NCBI GenBank assembly: GCA_963704655.1
Contig: OY969927.1
Coordinates: forward strand, 960,001 to 1,024,000
Reading direction: 5' to 3'
DNA from: an uncultured Candidatus Babeliaceae bacterium
Lineage (GTDB): Bacteria; Babelota; Babeliae; Babelales; Babelaceae
DNA: 64,000 bases
Shown here: one piece after another, positions 1,113 to 61,630 of the stretch
Layout: every line of letters begins with the position of its first letter
Position numbering within the stretch: position 1 is the stretch's first letter
The notes under the pieces: generated by a model
Told to the model about the DNA's origin: nothing
The model's database searches: none
Seen by the model: the letters and a program-made list of their open reading frames with translations, nothing else
Program-made: the position numbers and the translations under genes

Positions 1113-2123
1113 TTATGCTAAATAAACGATTCCAGCGCAGCCTATCAACATTATCACATAGAGGCTTACAATAATGACCTTTTTAGTCGATGCAGGGTAG
1201 TTAAGGGCCCACGAGACAGATAAAAAGGTTAAAAGTGACAATAATAGGTACAAAAAGAAAAGATAATCTGAGATCATGAAATAGCTTACATTTGGCGATA
1301 TTGATTCAATAACAAAACGATAGGCAAATAAGGCAGGAACCCCGGCGGCAGCGATGCTTGGTACGTCTGTGACATGCTCAGAATAACCAAAAGAAAATGA
1401 AAAGAGCGTTAAAAAGAAGATCAAATACATAGGTAAAAAGATGCTCAAAAAGTGCCGCATATCAATAGGATTACAATCCACATAAAAAATAGCCCTGGAT
1501 GAATTCATTTGATGCCTTCCATCAGGCAACGTAACGTCCCGGGCAACATAACCAACCTGCGCATTAACATTTTCCGCCATGCAGTTATTAATCGTCATCC
1601 GTGGCCCCAATACAAAAGCGTGCGGCAAAACGGTAAAACAATATTTTTCAATCGGCAAAGCGCTATTTTTTAAACAAAACCAAAACCTGTGGTCATCTAA
1701 TGGATATTCCTTGTAATTAAAATCCATTTTACTGCGCACTTGTATATCAAAGGTTGCAACTTCAAGTTCACCAAACTGACCATAACTGATTTGACTCTTT
1801 TCTGCCGTTGCCTCTTCAAAGCAAAATTGACCAATCTGTTCACGCGTAACCTTTTTTGGATCGTACGCAAAGGAAATGGTAGCATCGATACTTATATTAT
1901 TTTTTATGATATCGGATTCAACAAAATTATGGATAATAAAGCCGGTATAAATTGGGGTTCCATTTTTATGCAACAATGAATAGGGAGTTACACTCGGAAC
2001 ATTATCATATGATCTAAACGTTATAAAAGGTTTATAAAAAATAGCGATTAAAAAAAACGACGCTATAGAAAAGGCAGCAGCTTGAAAAATTGCACTTACA
2101 TGATTTTTACTTTTTGCGACCAT
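1113..2123 (-). CDS. Prokaryotic pentameric ligand-gated ion channel (Pro-loop, GLIC/ELIC-like) subunit B
   Basis: N-terminal TM; beta-rich domain with Pro-loop EYPLDDH; M1 with Pro (IFLPMYLIFFLTLFSF), M2 (LFAYRFVIESISP), M3 (YFMISDYLFF) and M4; ATG at 2123 overlaps the upstream TGA and follows AGGAGG. Confidence 0.75.
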   Translation of the reverse strand: MVAKSKNHVSAIFQAAAFSIASFFLIAIFYKPFITFRSYDNVPSVTPYSLLHKNGTPIYTGFIIHNFVESDIIKNNISIDATISFAYDPKKVTREQIGQFCFEEATAEKSQISYGQFGELEVATFDIQVRSKMDFNYKEYPLDDHRFWFCLKNSALPIEKYCFTVLPHAFVLGPRMTINNCMAENVNAQVGYVARDVTLPDGRHQMNSSRAIFYVDCNPIDMRHFLSIFLPMYLIFFLTLFSFSFGYSEHVTDVPSIAAAGVPALFAYRFVIESISPNVSYFMISDYLFFLYLLLSLLTFLSVSWALNYPASTKKVIIVSLYVIMLIGCAGIVYLA

Positions 2124-4351
2124 CACAGCACCTCCTGCCATTCACTGCCGTCTTGCAAGTCTAGCCATACACGTTTACTAATTTGACGATCTTGCGGATC
2201 AAAGGTAAGTGTTAATCCTTTAAAATTGTAATCTTTTAGCGCTTCAAATTTCTCTATTAAGGCAGTATGGGTAATTGCTCCTGTAACACGTTTCATCATA
2301 TCGCATAAAATGCTGGTACATATATACGCAAGTAAGCTGAACATACCATAACGTTTGCCTTGGTCGTCCATTAAAGATCGATATTCCTGCACAATAGGTA
2401 ACATACTCTTATACGGGTCTGGCGTCACACGCGTAAAAATACAAGAAAGACCCATTTCATTTTTTACAAATGAGGTAAACACATCATCGCCTACAAAAGC
2501 CAGAGCAAAAAGTTGAGTTGATACCAAATTAACCGCACCCACTTGGCGCAAAAACTCCTGCGCAGCAAATGAATTTGAAACAAACCCTAGCGCTTCAGGC
2601 TGCTCATTTTTGATAATTTCACGCTGTTTGTCAAAATTTGTGGTATAAGGCGAATAAGGAATTTCTATACAACGCTCAATGCCCAACTTTTTAAGAATCT
2701 CTTTTGCCTTTTGTAATGCTCCAATGCCATAATCATCATCTTGATAAAAGAACCCGAATGTTTTTAAACGGTACTTTTTAACAAGGAAATTAAGCAGCGC
2801 CTCAAATTCAAGATCATAGCTCGGAGTAAAATTAATAACACCTTTTAAATCAGCTTTCCTGTATTCTGGCGCTCCAATAACAGGGAATGCACTTAAAATA
2901 TTACCCGCTTTAATATCATCGCCTGCAACCTGCAACGCTGTGGTACCAATAGAAAGTAAAAATGTTCGAATATTAAATTCGTTTTCAAGCATTTGAAAAT
3001 TATCATAGGCAATGTGCGGGATATAAAAGTCTTCAAATATAACAGATTTCACAACGTTTCCTGGAACAAGACCTAAAGAATTTGTCTGATTCACTGCAGA
3101 AAAAATGCCCGTGCGTAAACGATCGCCAATTACATAATTAGTTTTTGAAAGGTCTAATGTTGAAGCAATATACATTTTTGGTTTGACCTCAATAACTTTT
3201 TCCTGAGTTTCTATCCCCGTTTCTAAATTAAATTGAGTACGTTTGAATGGTTCTTGTGAATCGGCATCTCGCGAGAAAAGATCTATGATGCTATTGCTCA
3301 ACTGTTGTTTACATTCAATACAAGCAAAAGCATCCTGATTAAAATTATAAGCTTTTTGAAATGCGAACGTTGGCGATGAAAAAACACGCCAAGCGCTTGC
3401 CATCTCATAGGGCTCTAAAAACATAAGCGCCTTCAGTCTTGGAACTTTTACCGTTGGGCCTAAGCCATTTATAAACACACTCACGTGTACTGGTTTAGAT
3501 GTTTTGGTCTTATTATTTAATTGCCATGTATGAATCTCATTCTTTTTTAATTCGGCAAATAAATTTCCAGTACTATTCTCTACAGACTCATGCTCCAGCT
3601 CTTTTAATGCGGTAAACTTTAAAAGGCTATCTGGATTTTCCGCAAAACTCCCATAAAAAGCAAAAGGCATCACCTCAATAAATTCTTTAAATTGAGAAAA
3701 AATCTCATCTCGATATTTTGGGTAAACAGAGTTCACTTGTTGGGCAAATCCTTTATTGCTCCATTCTTCACCCCTTTCAAAATCACTTTCTAAATAAATA
3801 ATATTATCTGGGTTTTTGTTCATTAGCAAAAGAGCCACTAATAATGTCTGTAACGGTTCGGCACTTCGTGCAACCACAGAACCATTAAAAATAATATAAT
3901 AATTTGAATCAATAATTTTTAACTGTTCATCGATTATACCTTGGCGCTTAAGCTCTTGCAGATCACGCACCAATGAATGAAAAGCTCCTTGAATATTACC
4001 AAAGATAATTATTTTTTGTTTGGATGCTAATTGTGTACCCATAATGTAATCACCAATGCGCCCACGGGATTTTTGCACTTCAATGACACTTCTCAAGATA
4101 TGAACAAAATCCTGAATAGGAAACGGGTCCTTTGCTATACCAAAAAATTGTAATATCATGGAAAAAATATTTGGACGCTGTGATGCAAAATATGAAGTAA
4201 AAGATGGGTTGTAATAATCTTTATTATCTGGAGCGATATTGCCCGTATATTTTTTAGTTAAAGCCATAAGGTCTGAAAGCGTATATTCGTGGCCGCAATA
4301 CAAAGGGACTGAAAAAACAAAAACGACATATAGTAATGTTTTAGACGCCAT
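2123..4351 (-). CDS. Secreted fusion of an N-terminal degenerate PPP/metallophosphoesterase-like domain and a C-terminal type I (LIV-BP-like) periplasmic binding protein
   Basis: Signal peptide MASKTLLYVV; FGNIQG / FNGSVVARS / YLESDFE occupy the GDxHG / GDxVDRG / LRGNHE positions; C-terminal FYQDDDYGIGAL, EDFYIP and FKGLTLTF match branched-chain amino acid binding proteins. Confidence 0.7.
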   Translation of the reverse strand: MASKTLLYVVFVFSVPLYCGHEYTLSDLMALTKKYTGNIAPDNKDYYNPSFTSYFASQRPNIFSMILQFFGIAKDPFPIQDFVHILRSVIEVQKSRGRIGDYIMGTQLASKQKIIIFGNIQGAFHSLVRDLQELKRQGIIDEQLKIIDSNYYIIFNGSVVARSAEPLQTLLVALLLMNKNPDNIIYLESDFERGEEWSNKGFAQQVNSVYPKYRDEIFSQFKEFIEVMPFAFYGSFAENPDSLLKFTALKELEHESVENSTGNLFAELKKNEIHTWQLNNKTKTSKPVHVSVFINGLGPTVKVPRLKALMFLEPYEMASAWRVFSSPTFAFQKAYNFNQDAFACIECKQQLSNSIIDLFSRDADSQEPFKRTQFNLETGIETQEKVIEVKPKMYIASTLDLSKTNYVIGDRLRTGIFSAVNQTNSLGLVPGNVVKSVIFEDFYIPHIAYDNFQMLENEFNIRTFLLSIGTTALQVAGDDIKAGNILSAFPVIGAPEYRKADLKGVINFTPSYDLEFEALLNFLVKKYRLKTFGFFYQDDDYGIGALQKAKEILKKLGIERCIEIPYSPYTTNFDKQREIIKNEQPEALGFVSNSFAAQEFLRQVGAVNLVSTQLFALAFVGDDVFTSFVKNEMGLSCIFTRVTPDPYKSMLPIVQEYRSLMDDQGKRYGMFSLLAYICTSILCDMMKRVTGAITHTALIEKFEALKDYNFKGLTLTFDPQDRQISKRVWLDLQDGSEWQEVL

Positions 4352-4364
4352 GTTATTTCCTTTT

Positions 4365-5459
4365 TTATAAAACAATATCTACTGCATAAAAAGTGAAGCC
4401 TAATACATACCACGTAATGATACTAAATAAAGTAATCAAGAGTAGATGCACAAAAATAATTAACATTTTTTTAACACGAACTGAAAGATCCACAGAAAAT
4501 ATACTAATTAAAAAAAGTAACCCTGCAATACCAAGAAAAAAAATGAAAAACAAGTCGCTTAACATAAAATAGCCAACTTTTGGTGACATATTTTCAATAA
4601 CAAAGCGATACGCAATAAGCCCAGATAAGCTTGCGCCATTAGCGACCATAATGGAAGAGAAATATTTTTTAGGGTCGTATGAAAAGGCGGTAAGCATAAT
4701 AATAATAAACACCAGCATAGGCAGCATAAGAACAAGGGTATATTTAAGGCCCTCTCGCGCATAAAAAATTGAATATTGCGCCGCCGGATATTCGACGTTC
4801 ATGCGCTCATCTGTGTTTTCAAGTTTATCTTGTAAATATCCTGTAATGGCTTCATGGTAAAACAGTCTCCAGCCATGAGCCTTAACATCTACATTAACCC
4901 TAAAGGCCTCTCTTTCTGCTTCAAATATAACCTCATAAGGAGAAACAGCCTTATTAATCAAAATAAGGGCAAGCATATGGTCATCCATAGGAAAAAAGCT
5001 ATAATCAAGCCCACCGATAAAGTGAACTATTACATCATAATGCACTAAAGTAGATTTACCTACCATGCGCGTTTTAGGCTGGGACACATGTTGAATTTCA
5101 GCATTTTTAAACTCAAAGCGTGAAATGGTATCAAGCGATACCAAAGACGAGTCAAACTCAAACCAAACGGTACCTTCACATATAAAATTGTTAGCAAGAA
5201 TGTCAAACTGGCGAAAATTAGAAAGGTAAAAACCTGTTTTAACTATGATAGGGCTATTGTTTGAAACACTTAATTTTTCTGGCATAATCGGTTGCACCAG
5301 AAAATGATTCTCTAAAGGCTCTGGGTAATCTATTATCGTTTTCATGAGTAAGAAAAGAATGGTGCAGGTGATAGTAATACTCACAAGATGAAAAAGAAAA
5401 CCTATTGAATTTCCACCATCAAGTAAAGGCTGCTCTTCCCTTTGTAAAGTCGGTTCCAT
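4365..5459 (-). CDS. Prokaryotic pentameric ligand-gated ion channel (Pro-loop, GLIC/ELIC-like) subunit A
   Basis: PIIVKTGFYLSNF..D....F.CEG.VW, LDYSFFPMDDH Pro-loop, GWRL, pre-M1 Arg, M1 LVLMLPML, M2 LIAYRFVIENMSPKVGY, M3 LSDLFF and M4. Confidence 0.82.
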   Translation of the reverse strand: MEPTLQREEQPLLDGGNSIGFLFHLVSITITCTILFLLMKTIIDYPEPLENHFLVQPIMPEKLSVSNNSPIIVKTGFYLSNFRQFDILANNFICEGTVWFEFDSSLVSLDTISRFEFKNAEIQHVSQPKTRMVGKSTLVHYDVIVHFIGGLDYSFFPMDDHMLALILINKAVSPYEVIFEAEREAFRVNVDVKAHGWRLFYHEAITGYLQDKLENTDERMNVEYPAAQYSIFYAREGLKYTLVLMLPMLVFIIIMLTAFSYDPKKYFSSIMVANGASLSGLIAYRFVIENMSPKVGYFMLSDLFFIFFLGIAGLLFLISIFSVDLSVRVKKMLIIFVHLLLITLFSIITWYVLGFTFYAVDIVL

Positions 5460-5639
5460 ACTAAAACTCCTTTAATAAATACGTCTTTATAAAGATAGCC
5501 CTTTTAAAAAAAGCATGTCAATGGTTAACTTCGAACCAGAGCCACCAAATAAAGCCTATTTGATATTTATTACAGATATGATATTATTATTAATATAATT
5601 AAATAATTAAATTAAATCTATTAAAGAAAAGGTATTTAT

Positions 5640-6053
5640 ATGAAGAAACTTATATTAGCAGCTGCATTTGCAGCGACTTTGTCTCTTTGTGCTATGAATG
5701 ACAGTAGTGTTAACAGTAACCTTGAGTTACTCATACCTAAAGGTCAAACCTCTGATTCTAGCAGCTTTATCACTGTTGACATGGGAACAAAAATAGACCC
5801 TATTAACTTCGAATTACAAGAAACACGTAAATTTCATACAAGAACCCTTGCAACTCAAATTGCTGGCGTTTTAATAGCAACTACAGGCTATGGAATAGCA
5901 TTTGTTGCAGAATCAACAGAAGTAAAGGTTATAGGCGGGGCACTTACATTCGCACCCCCACTTATAGGCTCTTTGAATAAAACTTATGAATTATATTGCC
6001 ATAACGAAGCTATCAAAAGATATCAGCAAAGAAAAGCTGACGAAAACGTTTAA
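5640..6053 (+). CDS. Hypothetical secreted/membrane protein with a C-terminal hydrophobic hairpin
   Basis: MKK-type signal peptide and two hydrophobic segments. Confidence 0.6.
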   Translation: MKKLILAAAFAATLSLCAMNDSSVNSNLELLIPKGQTSDSSSFITVDMGTKIDPINFELQETRKFHTRTLATQIAGVLIATTGYGIAFVAESTEVKVIGGALTFAPPLIGSLNKTYELYCHNEAIKRYQQRKADENV

Positions 6054-6072: not shown

Positions 6073-6118
6073 TTCATAAAATAAGGGGTGTTTGTAAAAA
6101 CACCCCTTATTTTATGAA
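6073..6118. terminator. Bidirectional intrinsic terminator
   Basis: Long inverted repeat ttcataaaataaggggtgttt...aaacaccccttattttatgaa between convergent genes. Confidence 0.8.
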
Positions 6119-6504
6119 GCTTTTAAAACTAATTTTTGATTTTTAATGTCTTGGCCTTCATATTCAACAGAAATCTTATTTTTACAAATACTTTCCTGTT
6201 TACCAACAGCACCAGTCGATTTACTTTTAATTTCAATCCAGTCAATACAGTCGCCTGGTGTCACAATTTTTGCACTATTTGAAGGTGACGTTACTGGAGA
6301 CAGATACAACGAGCCCTCTTTTCCTGTTAGAACGTCATAAGCACTTCCACCACCGCTCTGCCATTTGAGGTCCATGGGCTCCTGCGTATTATTTGTCACT
6401 ATATACGTCGCTATACGTGAGAAAACGTCTTCCTGCTTGGGGTTTAGCTCTGCCGAACACGTAAAAAACCCTGTTAAGGTGATCATATAAAAAAACTTCT
6501 TCAT
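6112..6504 (-). CDS. Hypothetical small secreted beta-rich protein
   Basis: Signal peptide, IVTNNT motif and a Cys pair; similar to its neighbour. Confidence 0.6.
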   Translation of the reverse strand: MKKFFYMITLTGFFTCSAELNPKQEDVFSRIATYIVTNNTQEPMDLKWQSGGGSAYDVLTGKEGSLYLSPVTSPSNSAKIVTPGDCIDWIEIKSKSTGAVGKQESICKNKISVEYEGQDIKNQKLVLKAS

Positions 6505-6893
6505 AAAGACTCCCTCACAATACTATTTTTAACTTCAATATCAAGTTTCTTACTCTCTTCAAACCAATTTTTTGCATTTTTTAATGTAATAATAATAGCG
6601 GAATCTTTACAGAAAGGTCTTGATCTAGCTTTATAGCGACCATCAACTGTCTGAACATACAAAATATGCACACAATTTTCATCATACGTTTCTATGCAAG
6701 CAGCACAAACTTTACCAGGCTGCAATACAAATTTCCCACTGCGAGCTTCTGGGCCCAAGCCATTACTTTTCCATAAAATCTGTAACGGAAACTCCGTGTT
6801 ATTTACAATTTGAAAATCTTTAGCCTGCATATTTGCAATAAGAAAAAAACTTGCCCCCAGAGACAAGACTAATCTATTAATAATTTTATTCAT
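6501..6893 (-). CDS. Hypothetical small secreted beta-rich protein
   Basis: Signal peptide, IVNNT motif and Cys residues; ATGA overlap with the next gene. Confidence 0.6.
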   Translation of the reverse strand: MNKIINRLVLSLGASFFLIANMQAKDFQIVNNTEFPLQILWKSNGLGPEARSGKFVLQPGKVCAACIETYDENCVHILYVQTVDGRYKARSRPFCKDSAIIITLKNAKNWFEESKKLDIEVKNSIVRESL

Positions 6894-7062: not shown

Positions 7063-9660
7063 ATGAATTCATTAGAAATACGTCAAAAATTTTTCAATTA
7101 CTTTAAAAAACAACAGCATACGCAGGTTCCAAGCTCAAGCCTGATACCCGCCCAGGACCCAACGCTACTTTTTGCCAATGCGGGGATGAACCAATTTAAA
7201 GATGTCTTTCTTGGTCTGGAAAAGCGATCTTATACCCGCGCAGTAAGTATACAGAAATGTATCCGCGCCGGCGGAAAGCATAATGACCTTGATAATGTCG
7301 GATTTACCAAGCGCCACCTGACTTTTTTTGAAATGATGGGAAACTTCTCTTTTGGCGATTATTTTAAAAAAGAGGCAATTCAGTTTGCCTGGGACTTTTT
7401 AACCAAAGAAATCAATCTCAATCCAAAGCTTTTATACGCAAGCGTATATAAATTAGATGATGAAGCTTACAATATTTGGCATAAAACCATAGGCTTGCCA
7501 GAAAATCGCATTGTTAGATTAGGCGAAGCTGACAACTTTTGGCAAATGGGTGACACTGGTCCATGCGGCCCATGCACAGAAATTTATATCGACCGCGGGA
7601 CCTCCGGTCTTTGGTCTAGTCAATGCCCTAAACCAGCCGACTGTGCTCCAGGATGTTCATGCGATAGATTTCTAGAAATATGGAACCTTGTATTTATGCA
7701 ATATAACCGCCAACCAGATGGCACGGATTTGCCATTAACACAAACTGGTGTTGATACAGGCATGGGGCTTGAACGCTTGTGCGCAGTTGTTCAAGGCAAA
7801 GATACCGTATACGACACAGATATCTTTTTGCCAATCTTACAAGCAACAGAGCATTTAACAGGCATAACCTATGCAAGTGCGCCTCACACAACTCAGGCTG
7901 CATTCAGAGTGCTCGCTGACCACATACGTTCATCAACTTTTGCTATTGCAGATGGATGCACCCCCGCAAATGACGGTCGTGGATACGTATTACGAAAAAT
8001 TATCCGCCGAGCAGCACTTTTTGCACAAAAACTCAGCAACAAGAATATATTCCCTGAACTTGCTGATGTGGTAGTTAACGAATTTGGCAATTTATACCCT
8101 GAACTTATTGCAGCACGTTCCTTAATTAAGCAACTCTTAACGTCTGAAATTGAAAAATTTTCATTAAATCTTATTAACGGTCAATCAATTCTGAAAAGCT
8201 ACTTTACCCAACAAGCAGCAACTAAAATTATTACTGGCGCACAAGCTTTTAAATTATATGACACCTATGGGTTCCCTTTAGAGCTTACACAGGTAATTGC
8301 TCTTGAACATGGGTTCGCGGTCGATACAAGTGGCTTTAAAACAGCCATGGAACAACAACGAATACAGTCAGGTAAAAAAGTAAGCTTTAAACATGAAATT
8401 GTTATCCCTGATGAACTTCAAACTGAATTCACCGGCTATACCGAATTGGTAACACCAACACGCATTACGGGACTTATTTTTAACAATGAGCTTGTTGCAG
8501 AAGTACCAGAAGGTGAAATTTGTTGGATTATTACTGAAAAATCACCATTATATGTTGAATGTGGCGGCCAAATTAATGACACTGCGCTTATGATGATAGG
8601 CCATCGCCAAGCAGAAGTTACTGATATCAAAAAATTAAATAAATCTATAGCTTTTTCTTGTGTTGCGCCAACTCAGCTTACGATTGACCAGGCAATTACC
8701 ATTTCTGTTAATCAGCAAATTCGTGCTAATACCATGAAAAATCACACAGCAACACATTTATTACAAGCGGCCCTGCAAATAGTGCTTGGAAGTCATATCA
8801 AGCAATCTGGCTCAATTGTAACCCCAGATTATTTACGATTCGATTTTACGCACCATATGCCATTAACGCAAGAAGAAATTATCCGCATAGAAGATATCGT
8901 TAATAACAAAATCATGGAAAACATCACCCTTTCTATCACAAACAGCACGTACAAAGCGGCTGTTGAAGCTGGTGTAATAGCTTTTTTTGGTGAAAAATAT
9001 AATCCAGATAATGTACGCGTTGTGCAAATCCCAGGAATTTCGGCAGAGCTTTGCGGTGGCACGCATGTTCGTGCAACGGGAGACATTGGCAGCTTTAAAA
9101 TAACAGAAAATATCGCACTTTCTGCTGGCAATAGACGCATTGTTGCACTTACTGGCCCAAAAGCCTTAGAACTTTTCCAGCAAGATTTTAGCCTTATCAA
9201 AAAATTATCACAAGAACTCAAGGTTCCAGGTGAACAGCTTGTTAAAACAGTTGAAATACAAAAAAATGATTTACAAGAATCACTACGCGCTATTAAGCAG
9301 CTTAAAAAAGAGCTCTTTATAATTAAGATCCCAACTCTTGTAACCCAAGCAACTACACTTAAAAATGGTAAATTACTTCAAGCAGTTTTACCAGAAGCTT
9401 CGCTTACTGAACTTAAAGAATATGCTGAACTCACGCTTTCAAAAGAGCCTGGCATAATGTTATTAATCAGCAGCGAAAATGGCAAACAGCTTGTATTTTT
9501 AGCTGTCTCTGGAGAAACTCAGTATGATATGAAAACTATAACAGACTGGATGAAGACACAGGGCATTAAAGGCGGCGGAACGCTGAAACATTTTCAAGGC
9601 ACTGCCGACAAACTTCCTACAGAGTTTGTAAAATTATTTACGAACTTTATCAACGCTTAA
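7063..9660 (+). CDS. alaS: Alanine--tRNA ligase
   Basis: DPTLLFANAGMNQFK, HLTFFEMMGNFSFGDYFK, NHTATHLL and ELCGGTHV motifs. Confidence 0.99.
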   Translation: MNSLEIRQKFFNYFKKQQHTQVPSSSLIPAQDPTLLFANAGMNQFKDVFLGLEKRSYTRAVSIQKCIRAGGKHNDLDNVGFTKRHLTFFEMMGNFSFGDYFKKEAIQFAWDFLTKEINLNPKLLYASVYKLDDEAYNIWHKTIGLPENRIVRLGEADNFWQMGDTGPCGPCTEIYIDRGTSGLWSSQCPKPADCAPGCSCDRFLEIWNLVFMQYNRQPDGTDLPLTQTGVDTGMGLERLCAVVQGKDTVYDTDIFLPILQATEHLTGITYASAPHTTQAAFRVLADHIRSSTFAIADGCTPANDGRGYVLRKIIRRAALFAQKLSNKNIFPELADVVVNEFGNLYPELIAARSLIKQLLTSEIEKFSLNLINGQSILKSYFTQQAATKIITGAQAFKLYDTYGFPLELTQVIALEHGFAVDTSGFKTAMEQQRIQSGKKVSFKHEIVIPDELQTEFTGYTELVTPTRITGLIFNNELVAEVPEGEICWIITEKSPLYVECGGQINDTALMMIGHRQAEVTDIKKLNKSIAFSCVAPTQLTIDQAITISVNQQIRANTMKNHTATHLLQAALQIVLGSHIKQSGSIVTPDYLRFDFTHHMPLTQEEIIRIEDIVNNKIMENITLSITNSTYKAAVEAGVIAFFGEKYNPDNVRVVQIPGISAELCGGTHVRATGDIGSFKITENIALSAGNRRIVALTGPKALELFQQDFSLIKKLSQELKVPGEQLVKTVEIQKNDLQESLRAIKQLKKELFIIKIPTLVTQATTLKNGKLLQAVLPEASLTELKEYAELTLSKEPGIMLLISSENGKQLVFLAVSGETQYDMKTITDWMKTQGIKGGGTLKHFQGTADKLPTEFVKLFTNFINA

Positions 9661-11488: not shown

Positions 11489-11876
11489 TGGTGGAGGCGA
11501 TGGGAATCGAACCCATGTCCGCAACACATCAGACTCAAAGCGCTACATGTTTAGTTATTGCTTATACCGCTATGACTCTTTCAATAACAAAAAAATGTCA
11601 TAGGGCCTGTTCAGTAATTGTTACGCCACACAACAAAAAAGTCTTGCGTAACATTCTATCTGGATTATACGTGCTTAATCAACTGATAGACACGCCAATT
11701 AAACAAGAGCTCTTAAAAAAAGTTGCTAAGGCTTACGCCATAGCAAGGTTTTGATAAGAATAGCCACTCATATTAGGAGTTGCGTTTATTGTTTGATCAA
11801 TTCTTTAACGAGCACTTAATCAACGCTCGACATGCTCTTTAAGACGTCAACACCACGTCGAAGCCAGTACGCCCCC
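11489..11876 (-). ncRNA. ssrA: tmRNA (one-piece), tag peptide (A)ATPNMSGYSYQNLAMA* encoded at 11783-11733
   Basis: 5' GGGGGCGTACTGGCTTCGAC and 3' GGGTTCGATTCCCATCGCCTCCACCA with a G3-U acceptor pair; resume context ATAAAC-GCA; tag ends in LAMA; lies downstream of smpB. Confidence 0.95.
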
Positions 11877-61554: not shown

Positions 61555-61630
61555 GCGGGAATAGCTCAGCTGGTAGAGCGTTGCCTTGCCAAGGCAAAGG
61601 TCGCGGGTTCGAATCCCGTTTCCCGCTCCA
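61555..61630 (+). tRNA. tRNA-Gly(GCC)
   Basis: 76-nt cloverleaf GCGGGAA...TTCCCGCTCCA; anticodon arm TTGCC-TTGCCAA-GGCAA; GGTTCGAATC T-loop. Confidence 0.97.

Follow-up and report, generated by a model that had tools for sequence, protein, structure and literature searches.

Bacterial ligand-gated ion channels of the pentameric type (pLGICs) have been predicted to be homopentamers, and some of them are described as carrying fused N-terminal domains, namely type-I periplasmic binding protein (PBP-I), MCP-N or Cache domains, or as sharing operons with genes for PBP-II or Cache proteins (Tasneem, Iyer, Jakobsson and Aravind, Genome Biol 2004/5; PMC549065). In DeCLIC, from Desulfofustis, a periplasmic domain packs on the peripheral extracellular domain and modulates gating, and as of 2022 this channel was given as the sole solved structure among pLGICs with an added N-terminal domain (PMC9897478). 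The locus described here belongs to an uncultured Candidatus Babeliaceae bacterium (assembly GCA_963704655.1, contig OY969927.1, positions 960,001 to 1,024,000); the whole stretch analysed, 64,000 nucleotides (nt), is called the window. Within it, three minus-strand genes, A, X and B, encode a divergent pLGIC subunit, a secreted two-domain protein and a second pLGIC subunit. On balance, A and X probably form a sensor-channel cassette, and B a separate, X-independent channel lineage that lies behind it.

The likeness to the described systems lies in the accessory module. In the pLGICs of Tasneem et al., a periplasmic small-molecule-binding module, fused or operonic, is predicted to cooperate with the channel (PMC549065), and DeCLIC too bears an accessory periplasmic module (PMC9897478). 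The differences lie in the nature and position of that module. In the survey by Tasneem et al., PBP-I domains are fused N-terminally and the stand-alone partners are PBP-II or Cache proteins, and the passages of that paper on which this comparison draws do not mention a phosphatase-like domain (PMC549065). Here, PBP-I sits on an apparently dead PPP domain and is encoded by a downstream gene or fused C-terminally, after the last membrane helix (M4) of the channel. The DeCLIC module consists of two jelly-roll lobes, placed N-terminally on the same chain, whereas X is a separate secreted protein with other folds (PMC9897478). Literature searches on Dependentiae/Babeliales channels, on the gene neighbourhood of pLGICs, and on pLGICs combined with metallophosphatases and periplasmic binding found no paper. 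What is new is the partner (PBP-I plus a PPP domain predicted to be dead), the place where it is encoded (in a downstream gene or as a C-terminal fusion) and the taxon; the theme of accessory binding modules was predicted in silico in 2004.

The channel subunits A and B

Gene A (4365..5459, minus) is an open reading frame (ORF) of 364 aa. It is followed by X (2123..4351, minus), which encodes 742 aa from an ATG at 4351 and has an alternative TTG start at 4375 (ORF 4375..2123), and then by B (1113..2123, minus), with 336 aa from an ATG at 2123 or 342 aa from an alternative ATG at 2141 (ORF 2141..1113). The ORFs bear out the three co-oriented, tightly spaced genes reported in a preliminary description of this sequence. 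The source genome is one closed contig of 1.298 Mb, 96% complete, and A and B are its only members of the channel family.

A and B are real but very divergent pLGIC subunits. The preliminary description had made the outer genes divergent paralogs of the GLIC/ELIC type, and both parts of that claim stand. The two proteins share 27% identity over 288 aa (E 2e-24), and in the sequence alignment B follows A along its length. A matches GLIC chains from the Pro-loop to the third membrane helix (M3; residues 146-309, E 4.7e-7). Its AlphaFold2 model, built on 33 homologs (mean pLDDT 86.8), consists of a helix at 21-44, strands at 71-235 and four C-terminal helices (M1-M4) within 239-363. A fold search, proposed earlier as a check, was run with this model and returned GluCl (1.3e-16), GLIC (1.5e-16) and, also at ~1e-16, GABA-A receptors, with TM values of 0.5-0.68. 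B alone has no PDB sequence match at E up to 0.01, and a profile of six B-clade sequences matches GLIC at E 9.9e-8. GLIC is the best sequence match both of A and of the B clade; ELIC and sTeLIC are other structurally solved prokaryotic pLGICs.

Why, then, have these channels gone unnoticed? Neither A nor B was matched by Pfam at E up to 1, the Neur_chan_LBD and Neur_chan_memb models included, and against the NCBIfam family LGIC_1 they score only 22.3 bits (A) and 18.1 bits (B), with a cut-off of 500. The curated families miss them because the sequences are divergent, not because the fold is different. Database relatives likewise have no Pfam domain and are named "hypothetical protein"; one of them comes from a "Candidatus Babeliaceae bacterium", which places the organism in the Babeliales/Dependentiae.

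The features shared with GLIC comprise the fold, the Pro-loop [FY]PxD, the M1 Pro, the Pro-Lys of the M2-M3 loop, a short loop between M3 and M4 and, in A, perhaps the pre-M1 Arg. The structural alignment has an identity of ~16%, and A and B differ from channels of the GLIC type by an extra conserved N-terminal helix and by the accessory protein encoded next door. All of the Pro-loop and M2-M3 motifs quoted in the first account are present in both proteins: the Pro-loop reads FFPMDDH in A and EYPLDDH in B, and the common block is AYRFVIE..SP.V.YFM.SD..F. Invariant in the 33-sequence family alignment, which includes B, are the prolines of the Pro-loop, M1 and the M2-M3 loop (P157, P247 and P293). 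The extra N-terminal hydrophobic segment, also reported at the outset, is a confident helix in the A model, and a hydrophobic stretch with conserved positions is found there in 33/33 aligned sequences; in A it is probably an uncleaved signal anchor.

The two subunits differ around the pore. A has an Arg aligned to the pre-M1 Arg of GLIC (R192 equivalent), and the B clade has Pro in that column and an Arg four residues on, in an alignment whose register is uncertain. Before M2, where the register is again uncertain, B has Glu/Asp in place of the Lys-Lys of A, and these acidic residues hint that B may prefer different ions.

X and its pairing with the channel

X was first described as a secreted pseudo-phosphatase joined to a LIV-BP-like protein, a description with which its leader, PPP profile, lost motifs and Peripla_BP_6 match all agree. 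It begins with an N-terminal hydrophobic leader, followed by two domains; the AlphaFold2 model of the whole protein has a pLDDT of 90.5 and a pTM of 0.88. The N-domain (residues ~23-390; 3182..4285, minus) is a PPP-type metallophosphatase homolog with degenerate motifs. A profile of 39 homologs of this domain matches PP5, PP2A and PP1 (best E 7.9e-9, for PP5) and, with E values up to 1 allowed, reaches 94 sequences in the PDB. Pfam Metallophos is matched by 12 of the 39 homologs; the N-domain of the window's X, searched alone, matches no Pfam family, Metallophos included. The motifs GNIQG, NGSVVARS and ESDFE replace GDxHG, GDxxDRG and GNHE. None of the 39 homologs has all three canonical motifs together, some keep GDxHG or GNHE, and the decay is most complete in the window's genus, where all three are lost. 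Because the catalytic and metal-binding motifs are not retained, the N-domain is considered a pseudo-enzyme, that is, a homolog of the PPP phosphatases that is, to judge from its motifs, catalytically dead.

Proteins of 454-625 aa with a weak match to the PPP-like domain of X are also encoded outside the window (G000:C1:1033376-1034996 and 1081711-1082031). PPP-like paralogs similar to those in G000 are present in many relatives, which suggests a wider PPP-like expansion in the order.

The C-domain of X (residues 392-742; 2126..3178, minus) is a type-I periplasmic binding domain of the Venus-flytrap, LivJ/K-like kind. It matches Pfam Peripla_BP_6 at E 1.2e-18 (68.4 bits, against a cut-off of 31.7) and 4kv7 at E 4.2e-23 by sequence and 1e-24 in Foldseek; its superposition on 4kv7 has a VIA Z of 41.3 and a root-mean-square deviation of 2.6 over 353 residues. 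In fold searches with the whole X model, the match lists are filled by periplasmic binding protein (PBP) entries. Characterised LivJ/K proteins are matched so weakly (E about 0.1) that no ligand class can be assigned from sequence. The domain also superposes on the Venus-flytrap receptors (mGluR, CaSR, GABA-B and the amino-terminal domains of iGluR) with VIA Z values of 24-34. What X would share with these receptors is a flytrap that controls a membrane signalling module, as is proposed for X; the difference is that their partners are seven-transmembrane proteins or tetrameric channels and that their flytrap is always part of the same chain.

The link between X and the channel comes first of all from gene order. 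ORFs at every listed pLGIC place were sorted by BLAST against A, B and both halves of X. Genes of the A family occur in 29 of 41 related genomes and in 159 of the 261 genomes of the phylum sample. X-type genes on the same strand cluster with 41 of the 50 pLGIC ORFs examined, and the remaining nine are solo genes, one of them on a contig too short to judge. At least one pLGIC-X cluster is found in 26 of the 29 pLGIC-bearing genomes. The commonest order is a pLGIC gene followed by one to three X genes, and in some loci channel and X genes alternate (L020, L027). In more distant families (L047, L048, L051), each X domain has a gene of its own and the channel gene stands between them (PBP, then pLGIC, then PPP-like); each domain is thus tied to the channel on its own. 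The observation is far beyond chance, since sequence and fold both lead to GLIC and many genomes have the cluster. The conserved unit across the Babeliales (Dependentiae), probably a functional one, is a pLGIC together with X.

The second line of evidence is provided by single-chain fusions. A profile search of 1.84 billion representative proteins gave 2413 channel-family matches at E<=1e-3, 790 at <=1e-10 and 393 at <=1e-30. Among the 150 matches listed there are eight long proteins with an N-terminal pLGIC. Six of these (971-1112 aa) carry Peripla_BP_6, five of the six also Metallophos, and the other two (743 and 767 aa) carry a PBP alone. In P0072, residues 359-1074 align to residues 23-741 of X (30% identity, E 1e-105), so that the alignment starts just past the X leader. 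All eight have a hydrophilic basic linker after M4 and have not kept the hydrophobic leader, which argues for true fusions rather than two-gene read-through artefacts. At the level of genome DNA, G196 has two tandem pLGIC-PBP fused ORFs, of 767 and 815 aa. A word-index search for longer relatives of A scored none, which is weak evidence; the exhaustive profile search did find fusions. Together, the conserved clusters and the single-chain fusions support the view that X serves channel A as an accessory sensor, and they back the functional link between channel and binding protein that was proposed from the start. Judging by the fusion point, X sits where M4 ends in the periplasm, at the channel's outer rim. 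This end of M4 adjoins the zone that couples the extracellular domain of a pLGIC to its pore.

How might such a cassette work? A and X would act as a two-gene sensor-channel cassette in which X is exported to the periplasm and is neither an enzyme nor a transporter part. Its Venus-flytrap (PBP-I) domain would bind a small solute, and the dead PPP domain may be an adaptor by which the flytrap is kept against the channel's outer rim, beside the C-terminal end of M4. Ligand-driven closure of the flytrap would then open or modulate the channel. A complex prediction for the extracellular domain of A (46-240) with X (22-742) scored 0.02 against a mark of 0.32, without controls, and carries no weight either way.

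Several variants of the pairing were also seen. In many genomes (e.g. G009, G197, G195 and G259), pLGIC and X lie in the same frame, one stop codon apart; loss of this single stop would join the frames but keep the X leader, unlike the fused proteins seen. An open frame of 1115 aa in G022 was rejected as a fusion, its translation having a stop between pLGIC and X. Two loci, L055 (G169:C56) and L030 (G029:C1), have pLGIC genes of 557-561 aa with an uncharacterised N-terminal extension of ~220-250 residues, and in L055 these long genes are paired with giant X proteins, of at least 1008 aa and of 1876 aa, in which two or four PBP domains follow one another in tandem. An X-type protein of 1190 aa in L028 (G026:C2, 5289-8861) seemingly has two PBP domains; its frame takes in the PBP-type stretches at G026:C2 8357-9385 and 9548-10576 and one PPP-like stretch.

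The B lineage and the rival readings

What, then, is B? Two quick maximum-likelihood trees were made; from the second, 16 of the 50 rows were dropped, among them the four longest branches and the truncated B of G003. Both trees give full support to an A clade and to a B clade and keep the two apart. The B clade has a long stem (1.23), and its sister is the solo pLGIC of G011 (SH-aLRT 89 and 96), a genome (90% complete, 7% contamination) in which the X query matched nothing. An approximately unbiased (AU) test rejects a clade of A plus B (log-likelihood difference 33.3, p 0.0004), though this group was chosen after the first tree was seen, a point to be set against our reading together with those gathered below. 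To judge from the trees, A and B are not sister genes and come from different old lineages. A third clade, of solo pLGICs (L034, G003:C11; L035, G004:C27; L039, G009:C1), has a stem of 1.44 and an SH-aLRT of 100; it comprises two congeners and one other genus and is absent from the window's genome.

A-X and B also have independent fates. Among the loci fetched, the A-X-B trio occurs in the window's genus only (the window, G001, G002 contig C37, G003 and G005). In a further genome, G004, alaS, two small ORFs, B and the HIT gene are in synteny, and a mere 98 nt take the place of A-X; the rest of this 66%-complete assembly yielded neither an A nor a true X. Loss of A-X is the simpler reading, since the B of G004 nests among genomes with A-X. 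In G003 it is B that is broken, with residues 1-241 following A-X on one contig and residues 252-340 preceding HIT on another, and A-X is intact. G002 has three A-X copies and one B. The spacing of X and B varies from the overlap in the window to 1 nt in G005, 125 nt in G001 and 685 nt in G002. B is under strong constraint, as its orthologs within the genus are 60-78% identical and almost invariant from M1 to M3; identity is 45-67% among A-clade relatives and 45-54% for X. Where other genera have two-channel loci, each channel mostly has its own X (L020, L027, L040/L032, L033/L043) or its own fused PBP (L054).

The preliminary description had suggested a heteropentamer of A and B that X gates in trans, as a bacterial parallel to the heteromeric Cys-loop receptors. 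This now appears unlikely. The tight operon speaks for it, with B translationally coupled to X in the window's genome: the X stop and the B start form a TGATG overlap (2125-2121, minus; TGA at 2125-2123, ATG at 2123-2121), and an AGGAGG ribosome-binding site (2131..2136, minus) lies within the 3' end of X, both as first reported and as borne out by the sequence read. Upstream, the A stop (4367-4365) is separated from the X ATG by a spacer of 13 nt (4352..4364, minus), in which an AAGGAAA-like ribosome-binding site was read. The trio is moreover kept in G001, G002 and G005 and, with B split, in G003, a set of two pLGIC genes and a single X also evolved on separate occasions in G012 and in G027, and B, without the pre-M1 Arg and with another charge at the pore mouth, looks as a specialised, non-equivalent subunit might. 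Against these points stand the AU result, B alone at the syntenic site in G004, the split B beside an intact A-X in G003, the duplication of A-X without B in G002, a sister of B in a genome without an X match, the unconserved X-B spacing, and the habit of other genera of giving each channel its own X or fused PBP. The genome does resemble those of animals with heteromeric Cys-loop receptors (nAChR, GABA-A) in having two divergent subunit genes; unlike there, comparative genomics here points to independent units. Of the arrangement first proposed, the channel-X part is conserved widely and the trio as a whole only within the window's genus, and the heteropentamer finds no support. It also seems improbable that A and B co-assemble within the genus, with A alone docking X, B setting conductance and gating through an acidic pore mouth and a changed pre-M1 coupling, and B forming homomers where A-X has been lost. 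If true, this would be the first bacterial heteromeric pLGIC.

We therefore prefer to see a cassette of A and X with a separate channel behind it. B would be another channel subunit, from an older lineage that does not depend on X, placed directly behind the cassette in the window's genus and, in the window's genome, presumably co-transcribed with and translationally coupled to X. Most likely it forms its own homopentamer, with an inner pore mouth that would be charged differently.

A number of points weigh against this picture. The docking of X on A, gating in trans, the ligand class and the homomeric assembly of B and of A are steps that we infer. With P0072 as query, no stop-free pLGIC-PPP-PBP fusion was found in the 261 species genomes, each candidate having at least one internal stop; triple fusions are therefore known from metagenome protein predictions only. 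Many relatives have two or three X genes per channel (L021, L025, L029, L031, L032), a few have two channels per X (the window's genus, L026, L042), and the nine solo genes among 50 mean that the family can work without X. The overlap of B with X, behind a strong ribosome-binding site, implies that B is expressed with A-X, as a shared complex predicts, and the combination of two channels with one X recurs independently in G012 and G027. Lastly, G003 and G004 are metagenome assemblies, and G004, besides being 66% complete, has its alaS in pieces. These are three in-frame pieces (L036, G004:C7, 228-2827), which point to frameshift errors or decay; the broken alaS lowers trust in fine detail, though not in the absence of the 3.4-kb A-X.

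Could X serve uptake instead? X is the genome's sole Peripla_BP_6 protein, and the Liv-type (LivH/LivM) permease family PF02653 has no match in the closed genome; a control found it in 12 of 14 genomes. Thus, X is an orphan binding protein and not part of an ABC importer. An organism with a reduced-genome lifestyle (about 1 Mb) that had lost ABC importers of this type might use X to capture a scarce host solute and the pentameric pore as its PBP-dependent entry, and the predicted M2 lining does have small residues where GLIC has larger ones (an alignment reading of uncertain register). Such a role would leave the dead phosphatase domain without an obvious function. To our knowledge, the known pLGIC pores (GLIC, ELIC) pass small ions and not amino-acid-sized solutes, which also counts against uptake, and we regard it as a doubtful explanation.

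It is very improbable that X is an active periplasmic phosphoesterase, or a sensor of phosphate esters, to whose product the channel answers. The homology of its N-domain to the PPP phosphatases, the 12 relatives that match Metallophos and the GDxHG kept by some would suit such an activity, but not one of the 39 homologs keeps all three motifs, the window's genus has lost every one of them, and the window's X lacks any Metallophos match. That the three genes are chance neighbours without a functional link is hardly credible, for although nine pLGIC genes are solo, the adjacency extends across many genera and families, and single-chain fusions exist.

Surrounding genes and meaning for the family

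Expression signals around the cluster are faint. A promoter-like site, TTGACA-18 nt-TATCTT (5492..5521, minus), lies 33 nt upstream of the A start with 10/12 matches, but the region has 23 such sites, where shuffled sequence would give 19.7; taken alone, the A site is not significant and constitutes weak evidence. More generally, a promoter and terminator scan of the region gave match counts no higher than in shuffles. Among sequencing runs, none of RNA was listed as a match, and the DNA runs listed contained small shares (0.07-0.15) of the sequence words.

Directly upstream of A are two tandem paralogous genes for small secreted proteins of 130 aa each (6112-6504 and 6501-6893, minus). Such ORFs occupy the same place in the same-genus loci L014, L017, L018, L036 and L052, and no counterpart was found in the pLGIC loci of other genera. 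They were rejected as parts of the system, as their homologs occur in same-genus loci only. Divergent from A is an ORF of 137 aa (5640-6053, plus), which has a leader at its N-terminus, a hydrophobic segment at its centre and a homolog in none of the fetched loci. Converging on the end of B is a gene (598-1110, plus) for a protein with an HLHLH motif, which we take to be of the HIT family, and upstream of the cluster lies alaS (7063-9660, plus); alaS and HIT flank the locus across the genus. Farther away, the window contains a tmRNA gene (11489-11876, minus; 155.5 bits, Rfam) and a tRNA gene (61555-61627, plus; Rfam).

The channels described here make up a large Dependentiae family (393 cluster representatives at E<=1e-30, and 159 of 261 genomes) that has been unseen by standard annotation. 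The family offers both detachable and naturally fused versions of the same partner, and with these one can test directly whether a soluble sensor regulates a pentameric channel in trans. For the organisms themselves, obligate intracellular parasites of protists, the cassette is a candidate route by which host metabolites may be sensed.

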